From assembly GCA_045105515.1 (NCBI GenBank), contig JBGCDR010000060.1:1-64000 (forward strand): 64,000 nt of DNA, in the 5' to 3' direction. The notes beneath the pieces were generated by a model. That model saw nothing but the letters and a program-made list of their open reading frames with translations, was not told where the DNA came from and did no database searches. The position numbers and the translations under genes were made by a program. Each line of letters begins with the position of its first letter. The stretch's first letter is position 1. This document shows positions 8,492-52,463 of this stretch, one piece after another. The DNA comes from Oligoflexales bacterium (GTDB lineage Bacteria; Bdellovibrionota_B; Oligoflexia; Oligoflexales; Bog-1112).

Positions 8492-9436
8492 ATGCTCTTG
8501 CTCTCTTATATTAGACCAAAAAACCTAAACTTATCTGGTTTGTTCTTTCTTTTCATCTTTCTAGGTGACCTTGCCTTTGCTCAATCAAAACGATTTCGTA
8601 AGGCAACCGAAGACGACGATGTTGTAATAAAAAATAAACTTTTCCCTAAAAAAAAGAAAATAGAATTAGCAGGCCCTGATATCGGATTGATTCTTAATCA
8701 ATCATATGTGCAAAGCTTCGTCCTACATGCAAATATCAACTACTACTTTAATGAGGAGTGGGGATTTACCTTGGAAGGGGCGATGGCTATAAACTCTGAT
8801 AAGTCTGAACGCTATTGCATAGAAAGGTTCTACAACGACTTTCTCAATAACGTAGGATCTTCTTGCCCAGCTCCCGGCCAAGATCCTGCAGATCCACTTT
8901 ACACTACAGATGAGAACAATAACCCTGTTCCCTATAAGGGTGCAAGTTTTGGTCCTGCCTACGTTCCGATAAGAGAATTAGGAACGATTTTAACTGCTGC
9001 AGCTGTTTGGAATCCTGTATATGGCAAACAGCTAGCTTTCTTGACTAACACTGTATATTTTGATCTATTTATAACTATGGGCGGCGGGATCACTCAGTCG
9101 ACCTATTATCCAAAACAAATAAAACTAGGAAACGGCAATATCTCTAGAGGAACAGCACCCCCTGAAGATGAGATTGCCGAGACTTGTAGTGAAGATAACA
9201 TCCCCGGCGCTTGCCCACAGCTTGATGATAGTCACCTAGCGTATATCGGGGATAAAGGTAGACCTGAGGCAGTTGTAGAGTCGACTCCAACTATAACTCT
9301 TGGAGTTGGGCAAAAATTTCATTTCAAAAAACGCTTTAGCTTTAAAGCTGAAATCCGCAACTATACCCTTTTAGGCACCGCTTCCGGTTTCGATAGCTTT
9401 TTTATGACTTGGATTGGCTTGGGTGTACGTTTCTAA
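8492..9436 (+). CDS. Outer-membrane beta-barrel protein, TIGR04565 (myxobacterial GltA/B/H-like) type
   Basis: Signal peptide (AFA), VVIKNKLFPKK, YYFNEEWG, WNPVYGK...YFDLF, GVGQKF, terminal Phe. Confidence 0.75.
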   Translation: MLLLSYIRPKNLNLSGLFFLFIFLGDLAFAQSKRFRKATEDDDVVIKNKLFPKKKKIELAGPDIGLILNQSYVQSFVLHANINYYFNEEWGFTLEGAMAINSDKSERYCIERFYNDFLNNVGSSCPAPGQDPADPLYTTDENNNPVPYKGASFGPAYVPIRELGTILTAAAVWNPVYGKQLAFLTNTVYFDLFITMGGGITQSTYYPKQIKLGNGNISRGTAPPEDEIAETCSEDNIPGACPQLDDSHLAYIGDKGRPEAVVESTPTITLGVGQKFHFKKRFSFKAEIRNYTLLGTASGFDSFFMTWIGLGVRF

Positions 9437-11128
9437 ATAATGGCCGATATGGTTAATCCTTTTTTGCACTGAATTTGCTACTTCCTTCCCAACCAAAATT
9501 GAAATAGCCTGGGGTACAAGTTGAGGGTTATTTTTCAAGTACATTATTTTCTTTGCAAGTTTTTCAGATGGAAACATCCTCCTTAGCTGTTGTTCTCCAG
9601 CTTGTAGGTAAAAGGATGTAACAAACGAAAATCCATGATCAATCAAAATTATTTGACCATCAGATTGAATTAAATAGTTATCTAAATTTCGATCTATATT
9701 GTCAATAATCCAATCAAACAAGACAATGTCGTTAGTGAGCCGGCTATGCCCTTTACCTTTAGATAGCTTATGATTCTTTATAGGAAACCTAGGATTAACA
9801 CGGCTTAGATCCCTTGCCTTGTAGGTATTTTTAATATAATACTGCAACGATCCAATTTTATTATCTAGAGGCACCGTAAGCTTGGTCATGGGAACCATAT
9901 TGAGATCGAGAAGTCTATCCATATGAAATGCTGCTACTTCGTTTTTATGTCCTGCAGCAATATATGCTAGCATGTTTTTATTCCCCTGACGAAAATTAAG
10001 AACTGCCTTTGGTTTATATACACCAAGGATTTCATGAGGAAATTCTACCTTAAAACTTTTAGAAATCCCTCCTCCTAAAGAACGTACATCAATGATGGCT
10101 CCAGGATGCATAATCTTATTGTAAACATACGATTCCAATTCCACTGCCAAAGATTCAAAACCTTTTCTTCTTAGCCTCCATACAGCTCTTTGTAGGTGTT
10201 TATCGGCAATTAACTTCGCCAAAGAAGCATCTCCCTGATGAAATGTTCTAATCAAGTAATAAGTATAATCATCAGCCACGGGAGTCATTACATGGCGTTT
10301 TGCAGGATTACCATAGCTATCTATTTGCTTCGAATATTTAGACTTAGGCTGGAAAAACCTTAATACAATACCGTCACTGGGGTATCTATTATTTGATGCC
10401 TTCGAAATCTCCAAGAAGAATTTATTTTTATAGACAGATTTAAGCTCACGTATGCTGTTATAAAGGTCCACAGCATCAAGCCCAAAATGATTTCCTTCTA
10501 CAAGGTCAACCATATATTTTGTCTCCAAAATTTTACCTGGATAAGACCTTGTTTGTCTCTTGTAATAACTACGGTAATGCAGCATTTTTTTAAAAGAATC
10601 TTTGTGAATGTTTTCCAATTCTTTATTGAAATCTGCCAATAAGTGCGGGCTATCACTTAAAAGATCAACCAATCGTTCATCGTAATCATTTCTGAAGGCT
10701 AAAAATTGTATTCGTAGCCTATCAATAATGCCGTCTAGAGAATCTAGCGATTGCCTAAATTTTTCCATGGGTTTTACCTGGGAAAAATGCCGTTCTTTTT
10801 GCCTCCAAATCTGATAAATAATATTTTTTATCTTTTTTTTATATCTACCTCTGACAAATATCTTAGAATTTTTGCACCAATCCTTATAGATAAATTTGGG
10901 TACTTCATGACTTTTAGGAATTACTAAATAATATGGAAAAAAACTTCGCGGATAATGTAAAGCTAGGTTTATATAGTCACTTAAATATTTTTCTAGTATT
11001 ACATCCAAGCTATATTCAGATATTTCAAAATCGCCTTGCTCCAAAACTTTTGGCCTGTTTATAGCGAATGAACCTTTTTCAAATATAATAGTTACTACTA
11101 GAAAAAATAAGAATAAAAATATCCTCAT
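9371..11128 (-). CDS. Secreted protein with C-terminal PI3/PI4-kinase-like (atypical kinase) domain
   Basis: Signal peptide MRIFLFLFFLVV...SFA; LGGGIS, VYKP, NEVAAF..DRLL....VP, GSLQ, DWIIDNIDRNLDN, LIDHG. Track start 11197. Confidence 0.7.
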   Translation of the reverse strand: MRIFLFLFFLVVTIIFEKGSFAINRPKVLEQGDFEISEYSLDVILEKYLSDYINLALHYPRSFFPYYLVIPKSHEVPKFIYKDWCKNSKIFVRGRYKKKIKNIIYQIWRQKERHFSQVKPMEKFRQSLDSLDGIIDRLRIQFLAFRNDYDERLVDLLSDSPHLLADFNKELENIHKDSFKKMLHYRSYYKRQTRSYPGKILETKYMVDLVEGNHFGLDAVDLYNSIRELKSVYKNKFFLEISKASNNRYPSDGIVLRFFQPKSKYSKQIDSYGNPAKRHVMTPVADDYTYYLIRTFHQGDASLAKLIADKHLQRAVWRLRRKGFESLAVELESYVYNKIMHPGAIIDVRSLGGGISKSFKVEFPHEILGVYKPKAVLNFRQGNKNMLAYIAAGHKNEVAAFHMDRLLDLNMVPMTKLTVPLDNKIGSLQYYIKNTYKARDLSRVNPRFPIKNHKLSKGKGHSRLTNDIVLFDWIIDNIDRNLDNYLIQSDGQIILIDHGFSFVTSFYLQAGEQQLRRMFPSEKLAKKIMYLKNNPQLVPQAISILVGKEVANSVQKRINHIGHYLETYTQANPSHKKAIETGSGA

Positions 11129-11226
11129 ACCTGAATCCATTATAATATAATTTTTTGCTAAATATTTTTTAGATTTATAGATTCTAATATGAGGCATGCT
11201 AATTCAAGATGCAACGACTTTTCCAA

Positions 11227-12084
11227 CTATTTTTCAGCATCTGGTTCAACATCATAAGTAACCGGAGGAGGGCTATCATTCCCTTCACTAAAAAAACCCT
11301 TTGTATATTTTTCTGGATTTAATTGATCTAGATCTATAATCCGATTAAAAGAGACATCCAGCCTTTCAAGCTTAGATAGATTATTGAGGACAGCAATATT
11401 TTTTATTTGGTTTTCGAATAGCGAAAGAATCTTTAATGATTTTAAATTCTGCAATGGACCAACGTCATAAATTTGATTATGTCCTAATTTCAAAACCTCC
11501 AAATTTTTCAAATTCGCAAGGGATGAAATATCAGTAATTTTATTATTCCAGAGATCTAGAAATTTCAACTTCGTAAGACGTTGAAATGGTCTTAGGTCTA
11601 CTAAGTTTTCACTTTGATAGGTTAAAGATGTCTTCTTCCTTAGCTGTTCGTATATATCCTGACAACTTGGTACATTTTCTCCATCAATATACGGTTTAGA
11701 TATAATGGCAACAGTATGTTTAATGTCATCCGAATCTGGATCACTGCAGTGTCTAAAAAAGTTTTTGGGTGCAGTAGAATTACTACATTGATCACCATTC
11801 CAATAAAAGTCATTTCCAAGAAACTGACATTCAGAATCAGAACTAGGTACAGTGCAAAGATAATCACCCTGATTCCAACTCGCACCTTTAATCGCTGAAC
11901 ACTGCTTTTTGTCCAGGCTCCCTTTTTCGGGTTTGACACATTTTGAACCGGACCAAAGGTATCCTTCAGCAGCTTTTTCCCGACACAGCTCTTCAGCAGA
12001 CTTTCCTTTATCTTGCTTACAAGCTGGACCAGTGACAAAAAGCCACAAACACCTAATAATCAATATTTTTTTTACGTCAAACAC
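11227..12084 (-). CDS. Leucine-rich-repeat (internalin-like) probable lipoprotein with Cys/Trp repeats
   Basis: About five LxxLxxLxLxxNxI repeats; GPA-C lipobox-like site; three C-x(7-9)-W-x(4-6)-C units. Start moved to GTG 12084 because the track start 12117 abuts the promoter. Confidence 0.75.
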   Translation of the reverse strand: MFDVKKILIIRCLWLFVTGPACKQDKGKSAEELCREKAAEGYLWSGSKCVKPEKGSLDKKQCSAIKGASWNQGDYLCTVPSSDSECQFLGNDFYWNGDQCSNSTAPKNFFRHCSDPDSDDIKHTVAIISKPYIDGENVPSCQDIYEQLRKKTSLTYQSENLVDLRPFQRLTKLKFLDLWNNKITDISSLANLKNLEVLKLGHNQIYDVGPLQNLKSLKILSLFENQIKNIAVLNNLSKLERLDVSFNRIIDLDQLNPEKYTKGFFSEGNDSPPPVTYDVEPDAEK

Positions 12085-12121
12085 CTTGATGACTCTCTGT
12101 AATGTGCCTTTTGGCAATAGG

Positions 12122-19586: not shown

Positions 19587-20603
19587 CTAAAAACTAAGAT
19601 TCAAATAAGTTCCGTAAGAATATAATTTGATCCCTTTATTCGCAGACAATGCTCTGAAACCTACAAAAATCCTTTCATCTTGCCAAGTAAAATCTAACTG
19701 ACCAAAATTATTTTCTCCGGCTCTGCCTGCAATCCGGTACCGGTTAGGAAGCCCAACAGGGGTATTATGCGTAAGACCACTGGCCATGAACTCATATAGT
19801 GGCTTTCCATTTCTAAGGGTTTTACGACTTAATTCGCTATAGTGCCGGTCACCACTCAGCAATACCACAGGTTGTGAACATTGCTCTAGCAGCTCAAACA
19901 AGCGATTACGCTCAGATTGATAGCCGGCCCACCCCTCTAAGCCAAAGCCGCTATATTCAGAAAGAACTGCGAGTGAAGAAGCAAGTAAAATCAAGTCACC
20001 GGGACTGGAGATAATCTCCCTTGTGAGCCATTGCCACTGTTCTTCCCCCAACAAGCTATTTCCTTCTTTAAAGAACCGCATGTCAAGCAGAATAAGGTGC
20101 ACGCGCTTAGTATTACCTCCATAAACATAACTCTGATAAATGCCTTGACTATTTCTCAGAGAATGTTGCATGGGCAGTCGAAGAAAATCGCAGAACGCTT
20201 CTTGGCTTCTGTCTTTGTGCTCATAAGTGCCATCAGAATTATTAAAGGCAAAGTCATGATCGTCCCATATTCCTACCACAGGAAAGCTTTTTGCGAAGTC
20301 CTCATAATACCGGTTACTCTGAAGAGCCAAATATTCTAGTTGCCTTTCATCAGGGGATGCAAAATCTGCATAAATATTATCCCCTAACCAGATCCAAAGG
20401 TCTGGATTAGTTTGTGCTATATTTACCCAAAATTCTTGTGAGAGGTCTTGATCATTGCATGAGCCAAAACAGATTCTATTGAGTGAGTCTGTTATATAAT
20501 TTCTTCGAGAAGGTTCCCAAAGAGTCGCTCCAAAGCCATAGTGAGAGAGCCCCAGACCAAATGCCATGGAAGATTTTACAAAAATTCGCCGATCCAAAGC
20601 CAC
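19587..20603 (-). CDS. phoD: Alkaline phosphatase D family phosphoesterase, Tat-exported
   Basis: DRRIFVK twin-Arg signal; FGSC, WLGDNIYAD, WDDHD, LSGDRH. Confidence 0.85.
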   Translation of the reverse strand: MALDRRIFVKSSMAFGLGLSHYGFGATLWEPSRRNYITDSLNRICFGSCNDQDLSQEFWVNIAQTNPDLWIWLGDNIYADFASPDERQLEYLALQSNRYYEDFAKSFPVVGIWDDHDFAFNNSDGTYEHKDRSQEAFCDFLRLPMQHSLRNSQGIYQSYVYGGNTKRVHLILLDMRFFKEGNSLLGEEQWQWLTREIISSPGDLILLASSLAVLSEYSGFGLEGWAGYQSERNRLFELLEQCSQPVVLLSGDRHYSELSRKTLRNGKPLYEFMASGLTHNTPVGLPNRYRIAGRAGENNFGQLDFTWQDERIFVGFRALSANKGIKLYSYGTYLNLSF

Positions 20604-20768
20604 CGCCCTTCTTGGCCTCCAAAGAGTGGAAAATTTTTTTATAAACTAAACTAGGGATAGTTTAGTTCTGTTTCAAGAAAGGTGAATAAGGGATATGTTA
20701 AATAATATTAAATATAAAAGGAAGAGCAAAATCGAAAAATAGGGAATTAGTCTCGAAGAGACTAGGAG

Positions 20769-22409
20769 TTACTGGTTGAAAGGATTTTCATCGAATTCGT
20801 AGCCGTTTCCTCTCCCAAATCGATCATCATACTGAGCTCCATACCGGCCTCCACGTTGGTTGCCATACTGATTATTATCTCTTGCAATAGGACTACCATT
20901 TCCATCAAGTTCATAGTTTCCAGTTTGGACTAGCCTCTGTAACTCTAAGAACTTACGCTGCTTTTCAAGCAAAGGAATCTTTTTCTCGAAATCTTCTTGT
21001 TGTTTTTCCATAAATTCAATAGTCTTTTGCTGCACCCATTCTGAATCTCCATAAGGTCTTTTTAGCACAGCTAGAACCTGATCCAATGGTTCTGCAAATT
21101 TTGATTCCTTATCATCAATGTAGTCAAACTCTGTCAACCTTGGATCAATGCCTCGCAATTCGTCCAAACGGGCAATTGCAAACACTTGTACCAGCTTCTG
21201 TCCTAGTTTAATCATATGATCGTGAGAGTAGCCTTCAGTACTTGGAACAAAGTCATCTTTGATAAGCTGATGGTTGGAGAAGACTCCATCAAAGAAATTA
21301 CTCACTTCAAAGAAAATAGATTTATTTTCGCTACTTTTCTTCGAGCTTAGATTAATGATCGTATCGGTAATACTATTTTTTAGAAGTAACATTCTTACTT
21401 TCGCACTAGGAGTCTTAAAATTAATCCGGTCCTTAAATCTACGGTCCAGCTCACTAGTTTCACTAATTTTTTTTAAGGCTTCACCTACTTCAGCATTAAA
21501 ATTACAACTGAAAAAAAGCGCAAAATTTTCTTGGGAGCTTTCATAGTTCTTCTTAAAATAATTTTGAAACCCACTATTACTAGCAATTTTGTTTAAAAGA
21601 AAGTCGCCTTCTGATATATCAAGAATAATCTTATTGTTTTTATTTGAAACTCGCTTCAACCATTCAGTTATTTCTTTAAAAGTTGCTGTTTCATCTTGTT
21701 TCTGCCCTCTTATAGGTCGACCTCGTTCGAGGTTCATCTGATGACCACTTACACTGTAGACCTTAAATCCTTTCAAGTGAGCGAAAGACCTAGATACTGC
21801 AGACTTTCCTGTTCCTGCATCACCGTAGAATATGGCATTTTTAAGAGGATCTCCTTGTTGGATAGAGCGAAATGTACTCTCAACATGAAGCTTAGCTTCG
21901 TCAGTATGATCAAAAGTTAAGCTACTAAAGGATGCTGCTCCATCTGGGTGTTTTTTTCCTTTTACATTTACTTGAGATAAGCCTTTTGGAGTTTTGTGGT
22001 ATCCAAACAAACCAGCTGCTCCCCACCCTAATTTAGAACCTGCAGTCCCAAACTGTTCAAGACCTTCATTTATACCTCGGATATTAGGATCTGTAATGAT
22101 GGTAATAAGACCTAGGGTACTGGCACCCAAGATCCCTAAAGCAGGACTAATAAGACTACCTGCAGGCATTTTATTTAAAAACTCAAACTTCCCTAGTTGA
22201 GACCCTATTTGCAAAGAATCTTGAACATTTGCAACTAGGTTATTCGCCGCCAATCCGACTCCCCGCCTACGGAAAAAACTCTCTGCATCCCTACTATAAG
22301 CTATATTAGATACTAGTACGTTTAAAAGCAGTGAACAGATCATAAGACTTGCCGATGCTTTTAGCCATGAGCTTGAGGATTTTGAGATCTTTTTTTGTAT
22401 AGAGTCCAA
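20769..22409 (-). CDS. AAA+ ATPase-like protein with N-terminal signal/TM segments, ATAD3-like
   Basis: Walker A GDAGTGKS, degenerate Walker B IILDISEGD, sensor-1 FFSCN, LDRRF Arg finger, TEGYS; RBS GGAG before TTG. Confidence 0.75.
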   Translation of the reverse strand: MDSIQKKISKSSSSWLKASASLMICSLLLNVLVSNIAYSRDAESFFRRRGVGLAANNLVANVQDSLQIGSQLGKFEFLNKMPAGSLISPALGILGASTLGLITIITDPNIRGINEGLEQFGTAGSKLGWGAAGLFGYHKTPKGLSQVNVKGKKHPDGAASFSSLTFDHTDEAKLHVESTFRSIQQGDPLKNAIFYGDAGTGKSAVSRSFAHLKGFKVYSVSGHQMNLERGRPIRGQKQDETATFKEITEWLKRVSNKNNKIILDISEGDFLLNKIASNSGFQNYFKKNYESSQENFALFFSCNFNAEVGEALKKISETSELDRRFKDRINFKTPSAKVRMLLLKNSITDTIINLSSKKSSENKSIFFEVSNFFDGVFSNHQLIKDDFVPSTEGYSHDHMIKLGQKLVQVFAIARLDELRGIDPRLTEFDYIDDKESKFAEPLDQVLAVLKRPYGDSEWVQQKTIEFMEKQQEDFEKKIPLLEKQRKFLELQRLVQTGNYELDGNGSPIARDNNQYGNQRGGRYGAQYDDRFGRGNGYEFDENPFNQ

Positions 22410-23114
22410 GGTCTAATTCTCCGTAATTCAAAACTTTTTATAAGATGAAAACCTTACAATAAGATTAAAACATTACATGTTTACTAGTCGGATTGAATGC
22501 TATGAAGGAATAAACGACATACCTAAGCTCTTTCTCTTTATAAGTCTCAGTTGTGCTTACCCTTTTTGGCTTCCGATCTAAACGTGATGGCAATCTACAC
22601 TAAATTCAACCAAAAATAAAGATGGTATTTTGAATTAACCATAAAATTAGATAGTTAATCCAACAAAAAGGATAACTTTACTTCATATATAAGAGGGATA
22701 GAATATGACAATAGAAAGCAAATAATTCCAAGATTATGCAAAATCCAAGGAGCTCAGGAAAGCAAAGAGAGATCTAGTTAGTTAAACAATAACTGAATGA
22801 TACTAACCAACAAGGTCTCTCCAGAGAGATTTCACACCCTTCAACTGTTTTTTTTGGCGAATGAATAAATCATAAAAAATTGTGAGCGAATTGACCAAGC
22901 CAAATAGGAGAACCATAAGCTTTACTGAGAACATTTAAGTAACCCCAAAAAACCCGTCAAATTGACATATTGGTTTTAAATAAATTCCTTGGTTAATGAT
23001 AGACGGATTTTTGTACAGAAAGATGACTTACCATATAAGGCAAACCATAAACTGAGAAGCTATTTTGGAGCGCAAAAAATTTAGATCTGAGCTCGTGGCT
23101 CAATTTAAAAGGAA

Positions 23115-24530
23115 CTAGTCTAAAAGGAAAGGTCCCCATCGAGGAGTTTGCGCTTGATATAGGCCTGTACTGATCAACCTCTGACTACTACCGTCACGAT
23201 TCATAATATAAAGTTGTGAGCGGCCTTTGTGATTCGAGTCACCGATCCGATTGGAATGAAACATTATCAACTGACCATTAGGTGACCAAGATGGTGATTC
23301 ATTGTCTCCAGACTTTATAGTCAAACGTTCAAGCTTAGTTCCATCATGATTCATTAAGAAAAGATCAAAACGCCCAATATCACGATCAAAGCCAGCAAAT
23401 GCGATTTTTTCGGAATCAGGAGACCAAGCAGGAGTTGCATTATACCAACCTGCATAAGTAAGCCTTTTATCTCCTACCACTTTGACTTGAGATTTATCAA
23501 GATTCCATTCAAGCTGTGCTCTAAAAATATGCGGATTTCCGTAGCGACCTGAAACAAAAGCTAGCCATTTGCCATCTGGTGAAAATGAAGGATCTACATC
23601 GATACCATGTCCCTGTAGCAAAGGCATTCTGTGACTAGATTTTTGCAAAGATTTTAGATATATTTCAGTGTTTCCTCTAATTGAACCAGAAAAAGCCACT
23701 AGCTTTCCATTAGCAGAAAAGACTCCCCCACTATTTAAGCCTTTGTAGGCAGCTAATCCTTCAACTTTGTTAGTTTTCATATCAAGCATATAGAGATCAG
23801 GGTTTCCTGATTCGTAGGAAGTAAATAGCAGCTTTGAACCATCTGGGCTCCAGGACGGAGCAAGGTGCAAGGCCTTTGTAAAGGTGACTTGACGAAGATT
23901 TTTGCCATCTACATCACAGATATAAACCTGCTTATCAGAGTTTTTAGTCTTTCTACCTATAAAAGCTATTTTACTAGAAAATATTCCTGGCTTTCCAGTG
24001 TAAGCAGCTAAAACTCGATCTACATACTGCTTCATAACCATATCAAGATCTTGAAGGTCTTTGACTGTGTATGCTTTACCAACAAGCCTTTCGCCCTTGT
24101 TCAAATCAGCAGTGCGAAGCTCAATCCGGTAACTTCCATCTGCTTGCTTATTGATACTACCTACTGTTAAGGATTCAACCCCGATACTCTTCCACTCAAG
24201 AAAGTTATAACCTTCAAAGCCTGCGATAGTTCCTGATACTAGTTTATTATCTTTTGTAGTCTTTATCCCTTGGTAAGCGAGCTGGTCAATCACTCGAAAA
24301 TATCCGCTAAACTCCAACAGTTTTGACAAGTCCACAGCAGCTTTTTTACCCCACTTTTTAAGGTTTTCGTCTGACTGAGGCGAAATATTAAAATTCGGAG
24401 TCGCTACTACCAATTTACGAAACTTAGGATTATCGATATCAACAACGATTGTATTTGCTTCACTTTTTGCTACAGCGCTAGCCACAACATAAGGAAGTAA
24501 TACTGCAAACAATAAAAAACTAAACTTCAC
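23115..24530 (-). CDS. tolB: Tol-Pal system beta-propeller protein TolB
   Basis: TolB N-domain, TGKPGIFSSKIAF, repeated PSWSPDG (PD40). Start GTG 24530 with RBS AGGAGG. Confidence 0.9.
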   Translation of the reverse strand: MKFSFLLFAVLLPYVVASAVAKSEANTIVVDIDNPKFRKLVVATPNFNISPQSDENLKKWGKKAAVDLSKLLEFSGYFRVIDQLAYQGIKTTKDNKLVSGTIAGFEGYNFLEWKSIGVESLTVGSINKQADGSYRIELRTADLNKGERLVGKAYTVKDLQDLDMVMKQYVDRVLAAYTGKPGIFSSKIAFIGRKTKNSDKQVYICDVDGKNLRQVTFTKALHLAPSWSPDGSKLLFTSYESGNPDLYMLDMKTNKVEGLAAYKGLNSGGVFSANGKLVAFSGSIRGNTEIYLKSLQKSSHRMPLLQGHGIDVDPSFSPDGKWLAFVSGRYGNPHIFRAQLEWNLDKSQVKVVGDKRLTYAGWYNATPAWSPDSEKIAFAGFDRDIGRFDLFLMNHDGTKLERLTIKSGDNESPSWSPNGQLIMFHSNRIGDSNHKGRSQLYIMNRDGSSQRLISTGLYQAQTPRWGPFLLD

Positions 24531-24546
24531 ATTTCCTCCTAACAAA

Positions 24547-25410
24547 CTACATAGGTGTTGGATCAAACCTAAAGCGTATTGGTTTACCCCAAATTTCTTT
24601 CGGGGGCTTAGGAAAAGGGGCCGCATCTTGGACTGTTTTCAATGCGAGTTTATCCATAGCAAGATTCTTTGAAGACTGATGGAGCGTCAATTCTTGAATT
24701 TTTCCAGATTTACCAATAATAATAACGAGAATAGGCATCTGACCCGTTTCAATCCGGTAAACACCAGGCAAACTATAAGTTCTTGAAATTTTATTGGTAA
24801 TAGCAACAATATAAGGATGATTCTTGGTAACTTTGCCCCCTTTATGAGTCGTAGAATCACCAGCAAGCTCACCCTTTCGTTGCTTAATAATAGAATCAAT
24901 TTTTTGTTTTTCTTGCTTAGCTTTTTTTATCGCAAGCGTCTCTTGTCTTTCCTGTTCTTTTTTAAGACGTTTCATCAGGTCTTCCTTGAAGAGTTTGGTA
25001 GCATCATCTTCCGGCTTTGCTTTCGCCACTTCAAGCTCTTCCTCAGTTTCTTTGACTGGTTTTTCCCCTTCTGTTAATTGCGGTATAAGCTTATCGTCTT
25101 GGCCTTTAGGCTCATCTTTTTGCTCTTTTATTGAAAACTTTTTCGGAAGCTGCGGTAACATAGGCCTTTTTTCTTCTTCCTTTTTCAAACTTTTAGCTGG
25201 TTCGTGTACCTTGCCTTTTGGTAATTCTAAGCCCGAAATATCAGCCTCAATTGCCCACTCTTCTAAAGGAGCAGGATTCGGTTCCAGCCACTTACTAGGC
25301 TTTAGAAAAAATCCTCCAAAATGCAATGCCAAGGAAGCAAAAAGAACCCACCTTAGAATCTTTGCCTCTAACTTTTGTGCCTCAGGTTTGTCAAAACTTT
25401 GAGCTGCCAA
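24547..25410 (-). CDS. tolA: TolA/TonB-family energy transducer
   Basis: N-terminal TM with S-x3-H (SLALH), Lys/Glu-rich linker, TonB_C-like domain (SSKNLAMDKLAL...AAPFPKPP); lies between tolR and tolB. Confidence 0.75.
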   Translation of the reverse strand: MAAQSFDKPEAQKLEAKILRWVLFASLALHFGGFFLKPSKWLEPNPAPLEEWAIEADISGLELPKGKVHEPAKSLKKEEEKRPMLPQLPKKFSIKEQKDEPKGQDDKLIPQLTEGEKPVKETEEELEVAKAKPEDDATKLFKEDLMKRLKKEQERQETLAIKKAKQEKQKIDSIIKQRKGELAGDSTTHKGGKVTKNHPYIVAITNKISRTYSLPGVYRIETGQMPILVIIIGKSGKIQELTLHQSSKNLAMDKLALKTVQDAAPFPKPPKEIWGKPIRFRFDPTPM

Positions 25411-25423
25411 TCACAATCTCCGA

Positions 25424-25894
25424 TCACAAGGTCTTCAAAGCTTTGCTCTTATTTTTATTGGAAGCTGCTGTCTGGTAAGGACTTGTAAGCATGGAAAGTT
25501 TTGACACTCCCGCAAGCTTTGCCGCTCCCATAGCATCAATTACACTGCCGTAACGCACCCGTTTATCCGCTCTAATATACATTTCTTTCTTATCACGAAC
25601 CGCAAATATAGCCTGTATTTTAGCTTCTAGCTGTTCGGGAGGAATTTTCTGCTTATCAAGAAAAAACCCGCCATCTGCATTAATTGAAAGGATAATACGG
25701 GACTCATCAACAGTTCCCCCTTTCGCTTTACTTTTAGGGAGCTGCACACCAATTCCACTGATAGAAAGTGGTGCTGCTACCATAAAAATGATGAGGAGAA
25801 CCAGCATAATATCAACAAGAGGGATGATATTAATTTCGGCCATATCTTGGTGCTCTTCATCATGTCCAGATGACGGTCCTATTCTAAAAGCCAT
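25424..25894 (-). CDS. tolR: TolR/ExbD
   Basis: EINIIPLVDIMLVLLIIFMVAAP, IRAD..V.YG. Confidence 0.88.
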   Translation of the reverse strand: MAFRIGPSSGHDEEHQDMAEINIIPLVDIMLVLLIIFMVAAPLSISGIGVQLPKSKAKGGTVDESRIILSINADGGFFLDKQKIPPEQLEAKIQAIFAVRDKKEMYIRADKRVRYGSVIDAMGAAKLAGVSKLSMLTSPYQTAASNKNKSKALKTL

Positions 25895-25897
25895 ATC

Positions 25898-26761
25898 CTA
25901 TATCCTCGGTGCTTGCTCTGAAGCTCCACCACCTTGCGGCTTGCTTCGATCGGAAACTAAATAGCGTTCAACGATATTTAAAAAATCAAAGCCAAAACCA
26001 TCCATATGCGACATCATTCCTCGAATCTTATTTGCAGCAATGTTATAACCTACTACTGCAGGTATTGCTGCGGCAAGACCAAAAGCTGTAGCAATCAAAG
26101 CCTCTGAAATCCCGGGCGCTACTGCTGCTAAACTTGAGCTACCCGTCCTTGCAATACCCTCAAAGGCTGTCATAATACCCCAAACTGTTCCAAATAAACC
26201 TATAAAAGGACAAGCTGAAGCGCTGATCGCTAGTACAGGTAAATAGCGTTCGAGCTGTCTTTTTTCATACTGTTTAGACTTATGAAGCGTCCTGGTCAAA
26301 TTGTCGACGGCAGCATTAATAGCAATGTCCGAAGTTACCGCACTTTCTTTCATTTGACTTCCACGTACTAATTCTGCGTAGCCATTACGAAACACCTCGC
26401 GCAGGGGGCTATAAGGATGTTCGCTCAATCTCCCATTAAGGTCATTGAGCGAACGACTATCCCAAAAACTCTTAGTAAAATCTTTGCAATTAACTTCGAT
26501 ACGGCGAAGGTAAAGCCACTTTGCAAAGAAAATAGCCCAAGTGAGAACAGACATGGTCACAAGGATAAAGAGGACCAAACTTACCACTGGCCCTGCTTCA
26601 AACATCCTTTGAATAAGAGTTGGTGAAGAAATAGCGACTTCTTGTGGTAGAGGAGAGGTTTCTGTCTGAGCAAACATAGCTTCTGTGAATAATAGCCATG
26701 GAAGCATTAATTTAACTGGGGAGCCCACCCTTATAGTGTGTGTAAGCAAGCGTAAATACAT
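25898..26761 (-). CDS. tolQ: TolQ/ExbB (MotA family proton channel)
   Basis: PFIGLFGTVWGIM, VAPGISEALIATAFGLAAAIPAV. True start may be ATG 26707. Confidence 0.9.
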   Translation of the reverse strand: MYLRLLTHTIRVGSPVKLMLPWLLFTEAMFAQTETSPLPQEVAISSPTLIQRMFEAGPVVSLVLFILVTMSVLTWAIFFAKWLYLRRIEVNCKDFTKSFWDSRSLNDLNGRLSEHPYSPLREVFRNGYAELVRGSQMKESAVTSDIAINAAVDNLTRTLHKSKQYEKRQLERYLPVLAISASACPFIGLFGTVWGIMTAFEGIARTGSSSLAAVAPGISEALIATAFGLAAAIPAVVGYNIAANKIRGMMSHMDGFGFDFLNIVERYLVSDRSKPQGGGASEQAPRI

Positions 26762-33014: not shown

Positions 33015-34205
33015 TCAAGAGGACCAGTAAAAATAACCTTGATTGATCAGATCTAGAAAAAAATTCTGGCTTGTCGGTTCCCTCTGAATCACTTTCAAGA
33101 TCTGTTTTCCATTTAAATCATAAGATCTGCTAATTAAAAGTACTAAATCTAGGAAATTTAGCGGACAAATTATTTCAACACCGTTGACAAAAAATAAGAG
33201 TTCTTGCTTATTTCGAATAAAGTTTATACGGCAAGACTCTTCCCTCATTAAATTAGTACAGCTACTCAAAAGTTGTGCACACTGTTCCCAAGAAAATGAC
33301 TGCTCAGGTGCTATGGCTTGGTATCCAGCAGCATGGTGACCTTTTGGAGAAGAAAGAAGCACCCCTAACCAATGTGGCATGCCCTGTCGCGAGCTACTCA
33401 GTTTTTTGAGCAATAGATCGACTTTCTCAAGTGTTTTAGGCGAGATTTCTGCTGGATGGTCAACTTGACTTAGGTCAGCGTCACCCAAACGTTCTTCATC
33501 ATCTAGCAAGCTTAAACAATCTTCAAGATGACTCTTTAGAAGCTCTTTGTATGCAGGAGCATGAAAACCTATGGAAAAAGTCATTCCTGCATCTATAGTC
33601 ACCCCATGATGGGCATGCCTAGGTGGCAGATAAAGAAGATCCCCCGGACCCAAAATAAATTCTTGATCTGGATTAAAAGTTTCAAGTTGTCTCAATTCAA
33701 TTCCATCGATATGAGCATCTTCTCCCTTCTTGCGTGCTTTGCTTTCAATACTCCAGCGTTTTTTGCCAGTGACCTGCAACAAAAACACATCATAATGATC
33801 AAGATGAGCCCCAACGCTCCCACCTTCGGGACTATAACTAACCATAATATCATCAAAACGCCAATCTGGAACAAACCTAAAAAAGGATTTTAATTCCGAT
33901 AGTTCGGAAACCCATTTATCAACATCTTGTACCAGAAGTGTCCATTTTATTGCAGGTAAGGAAGTCAAAGTAGCCTCGTCGAAAGGGCCAGATTTTAATT
34001 CCCAAGGAATTTTACCATTTTCTATAACTAAACGAGACTCAACTCCATCTTCGCAAGATAAACCTGCTAGTTCATTCTCCGAAAAAGGAGAAGAAAATTT
34101 TTTTACTCCATCCCTTATAAAAAGGGGTTTTTTTTGCCAAAATTCTCGCAAAAAATCTTTTATTTCCATCCCCAACTCTAACACAAGTGAACTCCCTTTA
34201 ATCAA
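33015..34205 (-). CDS. roxA: JmjC/cupin-4 oxygenase, RoxA/YcfD (ribosomal protein uL16 hydroxylase)-like
   Basis: FWQKKPL, ELAGLSCE..VESRL, WTLLVQ, PDWRFDDIMVSY, GGSVGAHLDHYDVFLLQ, PGDLLYLPP..AHHG. Confidence 0.85.
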   Translation of the reverse strand: MIKGSSLVLELGMEIKDFLREFWQKKPLFIRDGVKKFSSPFSENELAGLSCEDGVESRLVIENGKIPWELKSGPFDEATLTSLPAIKWTLLVQDVDKWVSELSELKSFFRFVPDWRFDDIMVSYSPEGGSVGAHLDHYDVFLLQVTGKKRWSIESKARKKGEDAHIDGIELRQLETFNPDQEFILGPGDLLYLPPRHAHHGVTIDAGMTFSIGFHAPAYKELLKSHLEDCLSLLDDEERLGDADLSQVDHPAEISPKTLEKVDLLLKKLSSSRQGMPHWLGVLLSSPKGHHAAGYQAIAPEQSFSWEQCAQLLSSCTNLMREESCRINFIRNKQELLFFVNGVEIICPLNFLDLVLLISRSYDLNGKQILKVIQREPTSQNFFLDLINQGYFYWSS

Positions 34206-38650: not shown

Positions 38651-40045
38651 ATGCCGGAATTTGACAATACTATTCTACCCTTATTAGCATCTCCAAAAAC
38701 TGGGGGAGACCTTAAATTAGAGGGCTCCCAACTCACTAGCAACGACAAGGCAGATGCATACCCTTTTTGTAATAACATTCCATGGCTTTTCCTCAACCCT
38801 GCACATTCTTGGACGGAATGGGGAGCCAGAATTTCACAGTCTTTCAAAAGCATTGAAACTGAAATTGGTGAACTAACGCAAAGCATAGCTGACAAGAAAG
38901 TCATAAGCAGTACAAAGAACCGCCTCAAAAAAGTTCTCCAAGGAAAAAATGAGCAACTAAAAAGTCTTAAAAATCTGCTCAAACCAATTCTTAGCTCATC
39001 TCCACTTCAAGATGTAAATCTTGCGAATGCTTTTTGGGGAAAGTTCCCTGTTCAACAACAGCTTCTTAGCTATGAGCGCAATATTTTTAGAGACTGGGCT
39101 TGGGATGCTGAGGAAAATGAAAAAACCCTACAACTTTTAAATAAGGTTTGGGAAAACAAAAAACAGGATCTAGGTAAAACCCTTTTTATTGGTGCTGGTA
39201 GCTGCCGCTTTCCGATTGATTTACACCGCTTACTTAAACCTGAGCTGAGTATAGCATGTGATTTGAACCCTTATCTCTTGCTTGTGGCTGAAAAAATACT
39301 TGCAAGGCAGGAAAGCAAATTCTTTGAATTTCCCCATCCAGCTGTGGATATTGACCAAGTCTGTGTAAAGCACACTCTCACGGATCAGGGACCACCTTTG
39401 GATAACTTTCATTTGGTATTTTGCGATATACTAAAACACCCATTTAAACCAGCTCAATTCGACACCATCATAACTCCTTGGTTCATAGATATTGTTCAAG
39501 TTGATTTTAAAATACTGGCAAAGATAATTAATCAGCTATTAAGACCAGGCGGCAATTGGCTTAATCTTAGTCCTTTATTGTTTGACCATTGCTCATCTCA
39601 AACCCGCTATACTCTTGAGGAAGTGAAACATATCTCTATGAAATCAGGATTGCAAATTGAATTCCAAGAGTTCGCAGATCTTCCTTATCTCAATTCTCCT
39701 CATAGCAGCCATAGACGAAATGAAAGAGTCTATGCTTGGCAGGCAACTAAAGATAAAGAGAGTCCCTTACTTGAAATCAAGAGCCAAAGCCATCTACCTT
39801 CATGGCTATTAAATCCAGAAGAGCCAATTCCATCTTTGGACTTTTTCAATGCCTTCAAAGGAACTCATCAGACCTATTTTGAAACAGTCTCTATGGTAGA
39901 TGGCAAAACTTCTTTAGCGGCTGTAGCAAAAAAACTGGCTAATAACCACAAAATGCCTGTAGAAACAATGCAAGCTTCAGTCTACCGATTTTTTCATACA
40001 ATTTTTGAACAACACAAAGACAGCATGTTCAGAGGCTTAAGTTAG
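38651..40045 (+). CDS. SAM-dependent methyltransferase (N2227/carnosine N-methyltransferase-like) with Trm112-like N-terminus and C-terminal winged helix
   Basis: LLASPKTGGDL...YPFCNNIP (Trm112-like); FRDWAW; LFIGAGSCR; FDTIITPWFID; LLRPGGNWLN; VDGKTSL..VAKKL tail. Confidence 0.75.
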   Translation: MPEFDNTILPLLASPKTGGDLKLEGSQLTSNDKADAYPFCNNIPWLFLNPAHSWTEWGARISQSFKSIETEIGELTQSIADKKVISSTKNRLKKVLQGKNEQLKSLKNLLKPILSSSPLQDVNLANAFWGKFPVQQQLLSYERNIFRDWAWDAEENEKTLQLLNKVWENKKQDLGKTLFIGAGSCRFPIDLHRLLKPELSIACDLNPYLLLVAEKILARQESKFFEFPHPAVDIDQVCVKHTLTDQGPPLDNFHLVFCDILKHPFKPAQFDTIITPWFIDIVQVDFKILAKIINQLLRPGGNWLNLSPLLFDHCSSQTRYTLEEVKHISMKSGLQIEFQEFADLPYLNSPHSSHRRNERVYAWQATKDKESPLLEIKSQSHLPSWLLNPEEPIPSLDFFNAFKGTHQTYFETVSMVDGKTSLAAVAKKLANNHKMPVETMQASVYRFFHTIFEQHKDSMFRGLS

Positions 40046-48900: not shown

Positions 48901-49983
48901 ATGTTTATATATTGGTTGCCTATGTTTAAATTTCCACCTATCGCTGTCGATATCGGATCATCTGCTATAAAGATTGTAGAGATATCTGGCACAAACAAAA
49001 AAAAGCTACGAAGCGTTGGTATCGAACTTGTACCAGAGGGAACAATTAGCGATGGCATGATTTCAGACATACCTACAGCTCAACAAGCCTTAAAAAGGCT
49101 CATAAAGCGCCTTCGCATTAGTACACTACGCAGAAGGGCCTGTCTTTCTTTAGGTGGTAGTTCGGTAATCATCAAAAAAGTTAGCTTTCCAAACAAAGAT
49201 GAAGACGAATTAGCTGATATGGTGGAAGCTGAGGCAGAACAACATTTTCAGCACGATCTTGACGATTTGCACTATGACTGGCACGCATTAGAAGCCCAAC
49301 CAAATCAACAAGATCGATCAGTAGTCTTAATAGGGGCAAAAAGAGAAATTGTTGACCAACATATTGAAGTTGCTAAAGCTATTGGACTCAGGATTGCTGT
49401 CATAGAATGTGATGTTTTTGCCCTGTTCAATATGTTTGAATATAACTTTGGAACAGTTCCAGGCTTGATTGCGCTCACTAATATTGGCGCCACTTCTTCT
49501 CAAGTTTCTCTAATTGGAAATGGTCAATATCTTTTTACTCGTGATATCGCAATTGCTGGAGACAACTACACTAAAGCTCTATCTTCAGCATTGAATATTG
49601 CTCCTGAAAATGCTGAAGCTGTAAAAATTGCAGCTAGTGAGGGTGGAGCTTCTGTAACTCCCGAAATCCAAAAAGTAATTGCCGAGATCAATCAACAACT
49701 AGTATCTGAACTTCAAGTTACAACTGATTTCTTTTTTCAAAGTGGTGAAGCTCCTTTAGATTTAAATGCACTATCCGCAATTTTTCTTACTGGCGGAGCT
49801 TCAAGAACAATTGGACTGGACTCTGCAATATCTTCTGCAATGAATATTCCGGTAAATATCATAAATCCATTTCATAAAGTTGAAATTCCCAGCAAATTTC
49901 CAATGGAAAGCATCCTAAGCCAAGGACACTTATATGGTATAGGAGTTGGGCTTGCTCTCAGAGAGGTAGAAGACAATATTTAG
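48901..49983 (+). CDS. pilM: Type IV pilus assembly protein PilM
   Basis: AVDIGSSAIKIVE, NIGA, FTRDI.IAG, LTGGAS, VGLALR. Start may be 48922. Confidence 0.93.
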   Translation: MFIYWLPMFKFPPIAVDIGSSAIKIVEISGTNKKKLRSVGIELVPEGTISDGMISDIPTAQQALKRLIKRLRISTLRRRACLSLGGSSVIIKKVSFPNKDEDELADMVEAEAEQHFQHDLDDLHYDWHALEAQPNQQDRSVVLIGAKREIVDQHIEVAKAIGLRIAVIECDVFALFNMFEYNFGTVPGLIALTNIGATSSQVSLIGNGQYLFTRDIAIAGDNYTKALSSALNIAPENAEAVKIAASEGGASVTPEIQKVIAEINQQLVSELQVTTDFFFQSGEAPLDLNALSAIFLTGGASRTIGLDSAISSAMNIPVNIINPFHKVEIPSKFPMESILSQGHLYGIGVGLALREVEDNI

Positions 49984-50013
49984 GAGAATTACCGCCAATA
50001 AGGTAAATGCATT

Positions 50014-50769
50014 TTGATAAATATTAATCTTTCTCCAATTGAAGAACGTGAAAACAAGCTATGGTTCCTTCCAGATGTAATCTTATTTTGCCTAATTACG
50101 TTTGGTGGATATGCTGCAGCCACCTTTTATTTAGGCCAAATTGAAGATGAAATTATTAGAACCAATGTGGAAAGGCAAGAGCTAGAAAAAAGCTATCGTA
50201 GACTCAAACCTGATTTAGAAAGATTTGCGCAGCTCAATAAGGAAGTTGAACAGCTAAAGAAAAAACTCAATTCTCTAAAACAGATTACTGTTTCAAAGAT
50301 TGCCAGATACAAACCAATAATTCTTCTTGAACATTTACAAAACCTAAAACCAGATGGAGTATGGTTTACCTTCTTAAAAGATGAGTCACAAGACAATATT
50401 ATACGACTTACTGGTCGGTCATTTGACAATCTTTTAGTTGCTGAATTTATGTCTGCATTGTTAGCCACGCGTCTTCAAGAGGTCGATTCTAGCGACATTA
50501 GAACCCAAGTATTCTTTTCAGCTGCAAACTTAGGGAGAGTCGCAATTGCAGATGCTAGAGCGAACCAAGTACAAACACAAAGATCTGATGAAGAATACAG
50601 AGCTTTTATTGCTACTCAAGATAATAAACTCGCTGAAGGTGCACCAAGTAGTTCAGGTGGAGGTTCAAGCTCTAGCGCTTTTCCCGAAATGGATAAATTC
50701 CCATCTTTTGAATTGAGTCTTCAATATCAAGAAAGAGGCAGCTTAGCAGATGAATCTATTGAAAATTAA
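50014..50769 (+). CDS. pilN: Type IV pilus assembly protein PilN
   Basis: MININLSP motif, TM helix, coiled coil, PDGVWFT; follows pilM. Confidence 0.85.
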   Translation: MININLSPIEERENKLWFLPDVILFCLITFGGYAAATFYLGQIEDEIIRTNVERQELEKSYRRLKPDLERFAQLNKEVEQLKKKLNSLKQITVSKIARYKPIILLEHLQNLKPDGVWFTFLKDESQDNIIRLTGRSFDNLLVAEFMSALLATRLQEVDSSDIRTQVFFSAANLGRVAIADARANQVQTQRSDEEYRAFIATQDNKLAEGAPSSSGGGSSSSAFPEMDKFPSFELSLQYQERGSLADESIEN

Positions 50770-50791
50770 TTTGAGCTTGGAAAATTAAAAA

Positions 50792-51523: not shown

Positions 51524-51551
51524 AATATTTTAGCCAAAATTTAGGACCACT

Positions 51552-52433: not shown

Positions 52434-52463
52434 TCACAAAAAAACTGGTATAAAGAAGGAATT

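Follow-up and report, generated by a model that had tools for sequence, protein, structure and literature searches.

The question raised by this locus is whether a gene of an Oligoflexales bacterium encodes a relative of ATAD3 and, if so, where its product acts and whether it turns over ATP. ATAD3 is essential in mitochondria and is tied to human disease. The ATAD3 literature cited below treats it as a eukaryotic protein and does not address its origin. All coordinates refer to the window, which is the whole stretch of 64,000 nucleotides that was analysed.

The gene and its surroundings

The gene and the sites next to it are as follows.

20769..22409, minus strand: gene for P0001, a divergent AAA protein of putative ATAD3 lineage, 546 amino acids, TTG start
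22419..22422, minus strand: ribosome-binding site GGAG, 9 nt before the TTG, kept in G001, a genome of the same genus
22538..22646, no strand: conserved non-coding block, 84% with G001, including a 39-nt identical run (22587-22625)
22803..22934, minus strand: previously unlisted 43-codon open reading frame (ORF), hydrophobic N-terminus and basic tail, KD19 1.92
20748..20764, minus strand: 7-bp hairpin directly after the stop codon, without a U-tract, -7.6 kcal/mol
20643..20668, minus strand: second, stronger hairpin before phoD, -10.4 kcal/mol, z -3.8

The first-pass annotation was right about the ORF, the DISEGD Walker B, the AAA module and the signal-like start of the protein. Both the TTG and the GGAG are kept in G001 although synonymous sites are saturated, which argues that the signal starts at residue 1 and not at 'MICSLL'. 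The AAA core is 76% identical to that of the G001 orthologue, again with saturated synonymous sites, compared with 72% for phoD. This comparison indicates that the gene is under purifying selection. Database sequence searches revealed a family of 12 members with an overall identity of about 30%. A word search with the family profile added none, and no member was present among the at least 79 metagenome loci listed (best E 2e-6), most of which are DUF815-type by motif (two confirmed). A viral scan with an ATAD3 alignment gave generic AAA matches only (best E 1e-14), and single-sequence searches of PDB and NCBIfam with P0001 gave nothing specific. The spread of the family is patchy (3 of 131 genomes), and its earlier description as a rare bacterial relative was right.

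The locus had also been taken for an accessory insertion. This is contradicted by its composition and synteny: the gene has a GC content of 0.380 and a GC3 of 0.303, the latter inside the range of nine neighbours (0.283-0.379), and is single-copy in backbone DNA syntenic with G001. The AT-rich upstream spacer of about 700 bp was correctly seen (705 bp, GC 0.325) but is not empty, since it contains the 43-codon ORF. In G001 this ORF has the same length, with 29 of 43 residues identical and differences by codon position of 13/3/17, and its predicted product is probably a small membrane protein. Because it is conserved and lies on the same strand, the description of the P0001 gene as monocistronic or stand-alone is unproven. 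The conserved block likely represents a promoter or regulator site; Rfam gave no match at E <= 1 across 20550-23200. The hairpin after the stop codon is exactly where it had been reported (z -3.3 in a 38-nt window and -1.7 in an 86-nt window), but it lacks a U-tract, and in the interval up to phoD the terminator scan listed no site. The second hairpin has a positional counterpart in G001, the pairing of which was read by eye. No conserved partner gene was found beyond the genus. A connection with the tol genes upstream was rejected, as G001 carries a permease gene at that place.

Kinship with ATAD3

Analysis with hhalign matched P0001 to a bacterial ATAD3-like profile over its full length (99.0%, E 1e-17) and to the eukaryotic ATAD3 profile over 220 columns (97.2%, E 3e-11). 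All six motif pairs previously aligned to ATAD3 by eye are in register in the latter alignment. With the AAA domain, the bacterial ATAD3-like profile scored 144, eukaryotic ATAD3 115 and the best other AAA group 95, with FtsH at 72 and Cdc48 at 63-65. This ranking was controlled using 9 queries and 14 templates. Eukaryotic ATAD3 scored above all 12 non-ATAD3 AAA profiles for the P0001 family (ratio 1.21) and above the non-ATAD3 templates for one near relative (1.27); in seven control families it never beat all of them (0.47-0.95). A phmmer search of 1.84 billion representatives returned a sole match outside the family, the bacterial ATAD3-like protein P0014 (E 9.5e-5). Among ESM Atlas structural neighbours, clusters with the ATAD3 N-terminal domain PF12037 accounted for six of the best ten listed in both searches, and generic bacterial AAA clusters ranked first when the feature search was confined to the AAA part. 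The noted resemblance to ATAD3 is therefore upheld by profile ranking, phmmer and the Atlas structure search. The top solved-structure matches were spastin, Cdc48 and Vps4 (E about 5e-8); no ATAD3 entry was among the PDB results, and so we regard these matches as generic. Counts of diagnostic residues did not discriminate (0/16, and in a second count 5/35 versus 1-10 for controls). P0001 is 23% identical to sponge ATAD3 over 176 amino acids.

In the trees, the P0001 family clustered with the ATAD3-like group and not with FtsH or Cdc48 (support 99 in two trees and 99/99 in a 39-row tree), but AU tests rejected no alternative placement (p 0.68, 0.42 and 0.17, the last joining the family with the eukaryotes), and the trees, though in agreement, do not decide the matter. 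Eukaryotic ATAD3 formed its own clade, which excludes the family (100/99, 39-row tree). The label "eukaryote-like" therefore has to be amended, the nearest profile also being bacterial. Clamp loaders, an unrelated long branch, were pulled into the ATAD3-like clade of the careful 39-row tree, which was rebuilt without them; the 71-row tree is a quick version only. The trees were made without cellular Bcs1 or SpoVK, and the viral "Bcs1-like" rows were labelled by eye and match PF00004 only. No FtsH, Bcs1, Cdc48 or SpoVK family domain matched P0001 in Pfam or NCBIfam.

It is improbable, in our judgement, that this is a long-branch AAA family from outside the ATAD3 lineage (an offshoot of DUF815 or of tandem-AAA proteins, for example) whose likeness to ATAD3 reflects convergence or attraction. 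Such an origin would suit the weak Pfam matches to DUF815 (E 0.001-0.009; PF05673 at 15.7-18.6 bits, below the cut-off of 23.8), the Walker A string common to both, the nonsignificant AU tests and the negative residue counts. However, DUF815 scored 86 over 154 columns compared with 115-144 over 211-212 columns for the ATAD3 profiles, the family joined DUF815, Bcs1-like, FtsH or Cdc48 rows in no tree, and the common spacing of signal, helix and AAA domain falls outside the aligned domain. Moreover, the relative G005:C121, whose Walker B is intact, falls with the family in the tree (95/97) and itself ranks ATAD3 profiles first. The first-pass interpretation is partly supported: kinship with ATAD3 holds at the level of profiles and predicted structures, and P0001 would be a highly diverged AAA protein of that lineage. 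New here are a rewired ATAD3-like subfamily and a second phylum beside Dependentiae. Among the literature search listings, we found no publication on bacterial ATAD3-like proteins or on Oligoflexales translocases and no earlier description of such a Walker B change; the Chromulinavorax paper has no occurrence of AAA, ATPase or ATAD3.

Membrane layout and ATP site

The following parts of P0001 were distinguished, all on the minus strand.

22293..22409, minus strand: predicted Sec-type signal peptide, residues 1-39, with 4 Lys, a hydrophobic core (18-37) and A-Y-S before R40, the likely cleavage site as judged by eye
22152..22292, minus strand: short, predicted periplasmic N-terminal segment, residues 40-86, where ATAD3 has its long coiled coil; pLDDT < 50
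22095..22151, minus strand: single Gly-rich membrane helix, residues 87-105, KD19 1.87, predicted by hydropathy only
21972..22094, minus strand: two short helices and FG-x4-P motif (G136 12/12, P141 11/12), not a second membrane helix
21405..21929, minus strand: AAA alpha/beta subdomain, residues 161-335, pLDDT mostly 83-92
21801..21824, minus strand: Walker A GDAGTGKS (K202 12/12, S/T203 12/12)
21603..21632, minus strand: altered Walker B IILDISEGD (D264 12/12, S266 at the Asp position 12/12, catalytic E267 12/12)
21438..21509, minus strand: sensor 1 (S-C-N303), 9-residue insertion and Arg pair R323-R324, R324 aligning with the ATAD3 arginine finger position
21153..21404, minus strand: helical lid, with S395-H396-D397 in place of the ATAD3 S-G-R motif
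20922..21152, minus strand: family-specific C-terminal helices (W458 and P479-L480 invariant; long helix 457-496)
20772..20921, minus strand: disordered Gly/Arg/Tyr-rich tail

The core of the putative signal reaches 1.80 in a 19-residue Kyte-Doolittle window, and 10 of the 12 family members have a hydrophobic N-terminal segment (KD15 >= 1.5). Signal and membrane helix are about 43 residues apart in P0001, where the eukaryotic ATAD3 median is 214, and Pfam searches found no PF12037 in P0001 (E <= 1) or in five other members (E <= 0.01). Two Gly-rich hydrophobic segments had been proposed. The first, residues 87-105, is membrane-like and as hydrophobic as the TolA (1.70) and PilO (1.69) anchors encoded within the window; in the second, residues 122-136, every 19-residue window is below 1.0. 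The helix scores 1.57-2.02 in the five closest members and is weak (1.10-1.33) in 3 of the 12 (P0011-P0013). P0007 and P0008 have an extra, moderately hydrophobic Gly/Ala-rich segment ahead of it (1.24-1.26); in P0001 and the three close members whose N-terminus is intact, the region between signal and helix never exceeds 0.65. By hydropathy, the P0001 helix ends 91 residues before Walker A, and the median distance is 88 in its family, 82 in bacterial ATAD3-like proteins and 87.5 in eukaryotic ATAD3. A single membrane helix best fits an inner-membrane anchor with a cytoplasmic AAA domain; a clear positive-inside bias was not seen in the flanking charges. ATAD3 itself is placed in the mitochondrial inner membrane with its ATPase on the matrix side in the topology outlined in part of PMC10419812. 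The FG-x4-P motif, matched by eye outside the hhalign-aligned region, is probably the counterpart of the ATAD3 LG-x-P motif. The AlphaFold model shows an AAA fold, and PF00004 matches at E=0.0017, below its cut-off. The Gly/Arg/Tyr-rich tail noted in P0001 is present there but in only the five closest of the 12 members.

All 12 members have the residue set of active AAA+ ATPases (Walker A Lys and Ser/Thr, Walker B Glu, sensor-1 Asn and Arg finger). K202, E267, N303, R323, R324 and R339 are invariant, as are the substitutes D264, S266 and H396. The sensor-2 position is occupied by Asp in 8 members, Ser in 2 and Asn in 2 and nowhere by Arg. The corresponding GFSGR Arg is invariant in the eukaryotic ATAD3 rows (14/14), and we infer that it equates to human R528, termed sensor 2 in a portion of 10.64898/2026.09.23.753918. 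In many P-loop NTPases, loss of the Walker B Asp is described as blocking hydrolysis but not binding (in part of 10.1101/2022.06.23.497301). As neither the Walker B Asp nor the sensor-2 Arg is kept in any member, slow or absent ATP turnover is probable, and members probably bind ATP and hydrolyze it slowly or not at all. The earlier suggestion of impaired hydrolysis is plausible and better founded than first thought, both residues being lost in 12 of 12. A rewired but active site, in which Asp264 or His396 stands in for the two lost residues, is possible but somewhat unlikely wherever the protein is located. In its favor, the six residues from K202 to R339 are kept in all members despite about 30% identity, and there is no variation in the replacements D264, S266 and H396 either, which looks like selection for a new site rather than decay.

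Possible roles and comparison with known systems

ATP/ADP translocases occur in 16 of 16 genomes of the Oligoflexales family to which this bacterium belongs and in 1 of the 115 genomes from the rest of the phylum; six full-length copies are encoded in this genome. The bacterium probably lives on ATP taken from its host cell, judging by these genes, and we flag the family as probable energy parasites. A type II secretion cluster is also encoded (GspD twice, GspE and GspG above the cut-off and GspF just below), as are four intact ATAD3-like paralogs, which lie amid signal-peptide ORFs on repeat-bounded, low-GC contigs. Contamination was considered as their origin and rejected. Their contigs have a lower GC content and for the most part find no match in G001 (two of four tested), but they share their terminal 140-bp repeats with large core contigs, and we therefore treat them as islands belonging to this genome. 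An obligate partnership between P0001 and an intact paralog was also rejected, none being found in G001 (94% complete) or G003 (59%) with 9-11 candidates scored per genome. Another signal-peptide AAA protein of this genome, C452, has no obvious anchor by eye.

The best explanation, which we hold tentatively and at slightly less than an even chance, is that P0001 is an inner-membrane-anchored, nucleotide-gated scaffold or switch of ATAD3 lineage in a host-dependent bacterium. The signal peptide would send the short N-terminal piece to the periplasm and then be cut off, helix 87-105 would stop transfer, and the AAA domain would remain in the cytoplasm, oriented like ATAD3 in the mitochondrial inner membrane. 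The domain, which we infer to form a ring, would still bind nucleotide through the invariant Walker A, catalytic Glu, sensor 1 and Arg finger, and hydrolysis would be slow or absent with the Walker B Asp changed to Ser and the sensor-2 Arg lost. With so little turnover, P0001 would serve as a scaffold or switch and not as a motor that pulls on substrates. P0001 would thus work in the bacterium's own inner membrane, in a cell that imports ATP.

The first-pass annotation proposed an exported effector. This is not the simplest reading of a signal, one membrane helix and an AAA domain, although export to the host is possible. As a host-directed effector, the whole protein would cross by Sec, leave through type II secretion or vesicles and insert into the membrane of a host vacuole or mitochondrion; there, as a non-turning, nucleotide-binding ATAD3 mimic, it would alter host ATAD3 or membrane contacts. 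The translocases, the secretion cluster, the paralog islands among signal-peptide ORFs, the patchy spread and the named relatives in Babeliales/Dependentiae are in keeping with this, and in one isolate of that group 44% of genes have signal peptides, by a figure in part of PMC6561590. We nonetheless find it doubtful: helix 87-105 is hydrophobic enough for stop-transfer, also in the closest members, a single gene copy lies in backbone DNA, with a core as conserved as housekeeping phoD, the ATAD3 coiled coil for oligomer contacts is absent, and identity to sponge ATAD3 is low. A periplasm-facing ATPase merits little credence. Here a hydrophobic hairpin or passage through the translocon would leave the AAA domain to use host ATP en route to the inner-membrane translocases. 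The extra segment of P0007 and P0008, the weak helices of P0011-P0013, the six translocases and the unanchored appearance of C452 fit such an arrangement, but the low hydropathy between signal and helix in P0001 and its three close members argues against it. Also unlikely is a pool of ATAD3 relatives in ATP-importing bacteria of at least two phyla that was the source or recipient of the eukaryotic gene, with the P0001 subfamily as a secreted, non-turning, nucleotide-binding mimic acting on host mitochondria or the membrane around the bacterium.

Bacterial relatives offer simpler material for studying ATAD3 structure and mechanism and, for its history, point to host-dependent bacteria outside the alphaproteobacteria. 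The P0001 family is a natural experiment in which the Walker B Asp and sensor-2 Arg were dropped while other catalytic residues stayed under strong selection, and the Arg lost occupies the site reportedly affected by the R528W disease change. Comparison with the four intact paralogs of the same genome would bear on whether ATAD3-type proteins require hydrolysis or just nucleotide binding, and on whether a P-loop site works without the Walker B Asp.

Among known systems, DUF815 (PF05673) has the same Walker A string, yet its Walker B is hhhhDD and it is distant in every tree. FtsH, Cdc48/p97, spastin/Vps4, viral Bcs1-like and IteA-like proteins have the classical AAA fold in common with P0001, and FtsH is anchored in the inner membrane, as proposed here; they differ in their scores (55-95) and separate clades, and P0001 has no protease domain or second AAA module. 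The bacterial ATAD3-like proteins (Ca. Babeliales, Dependentiae and the four paralogs), which carry the database label "ATPase family AAA domain-containing protein 3A/B", are likewise found in host-dependent lineages and have the same order of signal, helical region, one helix and AAA domain, a layout by which that set was partly picked, so that its own counts are not independent. Unlike the P0001 family, they retain hhDE at Walker B in 22 of the 23 matched, their sensor-2 Arg is nearly invariant, and their N-terminal region is longer (median 140 versus 64); the paralogs of this genome lie in repeat-bounded islands, whereas the P0001 gene is in backbone DNA. Eukaryotic ATAD3 (ATAD3A/B; PF12037 ATAD3_N with PF00004) is the best eukaryotic match of P0001 by both profile and structure. 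Both have one AAA module behind a Gly/Ala-rich helix at an equal distance from Walker A, an Asn before Walker A, a Trp in the helix before Walker B and one lid motif ending G-x-S. P0001 differs in its predicted Sec-type signal, about 45 residues where ATAD3 has the coiled coil, absence of PF12037, Walker A GDAGTGKS, Ser for the Walker B Asp, missing sensor-2 Arg, 9-residue insertion before the Arg finger, and extra C-terminal helices and tail.

The P0001 gene and its surroundings

The AAA protein P0001 (546 aa) is encoded at 20769 to 22409 (minus strand) by an ORF with a TTG initiation codon. The orthologue from a genome of the same genus (G001) retains this TTG, together with a GGAG site lying 9 nt ahead of it, despite saturation of synonymous sites, and two relatives carry Met at the equivalent position; the TTG is therefore taken as the true start. 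Signal and membrane helix were assigned by hydropathy alone (Kyte-Doolittle, 19-residue window [KD19]). A hydrophobic stretch spans residues 18 to 37 (KD19, 1.80) and closes near A-Y-S, as would be expected of a cleavable Sec signal. Of the two Gly-rich hydrophobic segments in the first-pass annotation, the first (residues 87 to 105) resembles a single membrane helix (KD19, 1.87), but the second (residues 122 to 136) always stays below 1.0. An AlphaFold model built from a 12-row alignment (mean pLDDT, 69; pTM, 0.56) gave a confident AAA domain and lid with additional C-terminal helices; the N terminus and tail had no resolved fold.

The gene had been read as consistent with an accessory insertion. 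A recent insertion is contradicted by its GC content (0.380) and GC3 (0.303), which are in line with those of nine neighbors, and by G001, where the same gene is followed by the same phoD-like gene (identity of 76% for the AAA core versus 72% for phoD). The 705-bp upstream spacer contains three blocks 78 to 86% identical to G001, including the following features:

22803-22934, minus strand: unlisted 43-codon ORF with a hydrophobic N terminus, same length and frame in G001 (29/43 identical)
22587-22625: part of a conserved noncoding block, a 39-nt run identical in G001, ~180 to 215 nt upstream of the AAA gene

Differences from G001 in the 43-codon ORF fall 13/3/17 by codon position, and its product is probably a small membrane protein; a Pfam search gave no match. 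The ORF was found in 2 of 131 genomes, with one further weak match, and none was seen ahead of the family gene in G003, another genome of the phylum. The noncoding block, which had no Rfam match, is likely regulatory. The reported downstream hairpin (20748 to 20764) is real but lacks a U-tract. Upstream lies a tolQ-tolR-tolA-tolB cluster without pal (23115 to 26761, minus strand; best Pal match on contig C51), a linkage not kept in G001.

A small family with an altered ATP site

A word-index search with P0001 returned 5 matches among 8,000 candidates, itself included. When 1.84 billion representatives were searched without an index (E ≤ 0.001), nine matches came back, comprising eight family members and P0014, a bacterial ATAD3-like protein outside the family. 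The family totals 12 sequences, 29 to 71% identical to P0001. Its profile found three full members (in the source genome, G001, and G003) and one partial match (G005:C121) among 131 phylum genomes, and all four genomes belong to one family. The distant members P0008, P0011, and P0012 terminate in P-A-A; P0011 and P0012, each with a longest contig of 5,776 bp, may be tandem paralogs.

K202, S/T203, E267, N303, R323, R324, and R339 are kept in 12/12 members. The altered Walker B motif noted earlier proved to be a family trait: Ser (S266) occupies the Asp position in all 12, with an invariant Asp (D264) two residues before. The register is fixed because E-x-D-x-L-L matches both D-E-A-D-x-F-L and the Walker B motif of spastin. 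The lid motif, S-G-R in ATAD3, is S-H-D/S/N here. All 14 eukaryotic ATAD3 rows have the lid Arg, which is also almost invariant across 23 bacterial ATAD3-like rows. Loops at two positions that we take to be pore loops are shortened or replaced, which would fit a nonthreading role. G005:C121 has an intact Walker B motif, shares A-G-T-G-K-S and S-F-A-H with the family, and lacks the lid Arg, making it a possible intermediate. This signal-bearing protein (L178:1305-3140) groups with the family, and a long insertion precedes its Walker B motif; by eye, a strong membrane helix is not obvious.

From residue offsets, the lid Arg would correspond to human ATAD3 R528, termed sensor 2 and required for ATP binding in a preprint (10.64898/2026.09.23.753918). 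A structural survey (10.1101/2022.06.23.497301) describes the Walker B Asp as strictly conserved and reports that binding is not lost when Asp-to-Asn changes block activated hydrolysis. Because both residues are replaced, low or no ATP turnover is the likelier reading. We leave room for a rebuilt catalytic site, since the replacement residues are themselves invariant.

Relationship to ATAD3

All six motif pairs matched by eye to ATAD3 in the first-pass annotation were in register when the family profile was aligned with 14 eukaryotic ATAD3 proteins (220 columns; 97.2%; E, 3e-11). With AAA domains alone, the family profile scored 144 against 28 bacterial ATAD3-like rows, a set chosen by eye with source names on few rows, and 115 against 15 eukaryotic ATAD3 rows, followed by the third module of a tandem-AAA protein (95), DUF815 (86), a viral Bcs1-like template labeled by eye (79), FtsH (72), and Cdc48 (63 to 65). 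Template bias was controlled by comparing eukaryotic ATAD3 with all non-ATAD3 templates, also with seven control queries. Eukaryotic ATAD3 topped all of these non-ATAD3 templates only for the family (ratio, 1.21) and G005:C121 (1.27); none of the seven controls preferred it (0.47 to 0.95, clamp loaders nearest). In ESM Atlas structure searches with whole P0001 and with residues 120 to 430, clusters bearing PF12037 (the ATAD3 N-terminal domain) filled 6 of the 10 listed rows each time (TM, 0.64 to 0.67), and a bacterial cluster, most commonly Chlamydiota, was also listed; in a feature search on the AAA domain, the top ranks went to generic bacterial AAA clusters. Independent of the AAA domain is the spacing from helix end to Walker A: the family median is 88 aa, compared with 82 aa for the bacterial ATAD3-like proteins and 87.5 aa for ATAD3 of eukaryotes.

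Phylogeny agreed in part. LG+C20 trees joined the family plus G005:C121 (95 to 98) to the ATAD3-like group (99), with eukaryotic ATAD3 a separate clade (98 to 100), but clamp loaders were also pulled into that group in one of these trees. Three alternative placements of the family went unrejected in AU tests: outside bacterial plus eukaryotic ATAD3 (P = 0.68, with a likelihood higher by 2.9), at a position further out (P = 0.42), and together with the eukaryotic proteins (P = 0.17). Counts of diagnostic residues came out negative, at 0/16 for a first set, in which a conserved Trp was misaligned, and 5/35 for a second, versus 1 to 10 in controls. Membership in ATAD3 proper was ruled out: P0001 has no PF12037 domain and is 23% identical to a sponge ATAD3 over 176 aa. 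We consider an ATAD3 lineage highly probable, with the family on a long branch beside, or budding from, the bacterial ATAD3-like group rather than a recent capture from a eukaryote.

Four further AAA proteins of the source genome carry a signal and an unaltered Walker B motif and score 110 to 225 bits against the eukaryotic ATAD3 profile (next AAA protein, 59). These intact ATAD3-like paralogs, all with signal-like N termini, are:

L001, C66:6255-7703
L002, C249:6988-8094
L003, C305:164-1444
L004, C351:1051-2961

A search with one intact paralog retrieved PF12037-bearing eukaryotic ATAD3 (rows named as sponge, Fonticula, plant, and alga), along with bacterial matches under the names Babeliales, Dependentiae, and Cellvibrionales, of which four bear the JGI label ATAD3A/B. 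The C66 paralog has a weak PF12037 match (E, 0.0011). Intact genes were found in 2/131 phylum genomes, both within the family of the P0001 host. The four contigs are short, low in GC, and flanked by high-copy repeats; identical 135- to 145-bp sequences end very many contigs of this genome, which suggests that insertion elements in high copy number interrupt the assembly. A further signal-peptide protein, Cdc48-like (C452:125-1651, minus strand; cut at the contig end), has by eye a degenerate first and intact second AAA module and no obvious membrane anchor.

Probable host dependence, proposed topology, and role

ATP/ADP translocases mark host-dependent bacteria. The source genome encodes six, all full length (contigs C74, C181, C166, C40, C393, and C190); each of the remaining 15 family genomes has one to six copies (16/16 in total), against 1/115 in the rest of the phylum. 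These genomes probably represent a family of energy parasites within the Oligoflexales, apparently undescribed so far. The genome, 91% complete, also encodes flagella, type IV pili, and a type II secretion cluster (contig C36, L187:1598-14746) with two GspD secretins in tandem; no T6SS VipB was found in it. Within the window, a 608-aa candidate host-directed kinase (9371 to 11197, minus strand; PI3/PI4-kinase-family match, E of 8e-7, above the cutoff) adjoins an LRR protein gene (11227 to 12117), and a pilMNOPQ operon (48901 to 55700, plus strand) encodes an unusually long PilQ secretin (1,078 aa). Carnosine N-methyltransferase-family (38651 to 40045, plus strand) and JmjC-family (33015 to 34205, minus strand) genes are also present; both families are more usual in eukaryotes.

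By hydropathy, P0001 would most simply be a type I inner-membrane protein, with a signal, one helix, and a cytoplasmic AAA domain, which with its altered ATP site could act as a nucleotide-gated scaffold. We favor this proposal tentatively, at somewhat short of even chances. Export to the host seems unlikely, though the host-dependent lifestyle, the type II secretion system, the carriage of intact paralogs on islands, and the weak membrane helices of distant members speak for it. Still less probable is a periplasm-facing AAA domain, a form made conceivable by host ATP having to cross the periplasm. The cytoplasmic placement predicted for the proposed scaffold matches ATAD3, whose ATPase faces the mitochondrial matrix according to two sources (PMC10419812; 10.1101/2025.10.06.680775).

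Our search of literature listings, which covered few subscription journals, turned up no publication on relatives of ATAD3 in bacteria or on ATP/ADP translocases in Oligoflexales; some bacterial proteins already carry ATAD3A/B labels in databases. In PMC3790746 and a Plasmodium preprint, ATAD3 is listed only for animals, plants, and protists. New here are a second phylum with bacterial ATAD3 relatives, a subfamily whose rewired ATP site is fixed, and the tie to an ATP-importing lineage.
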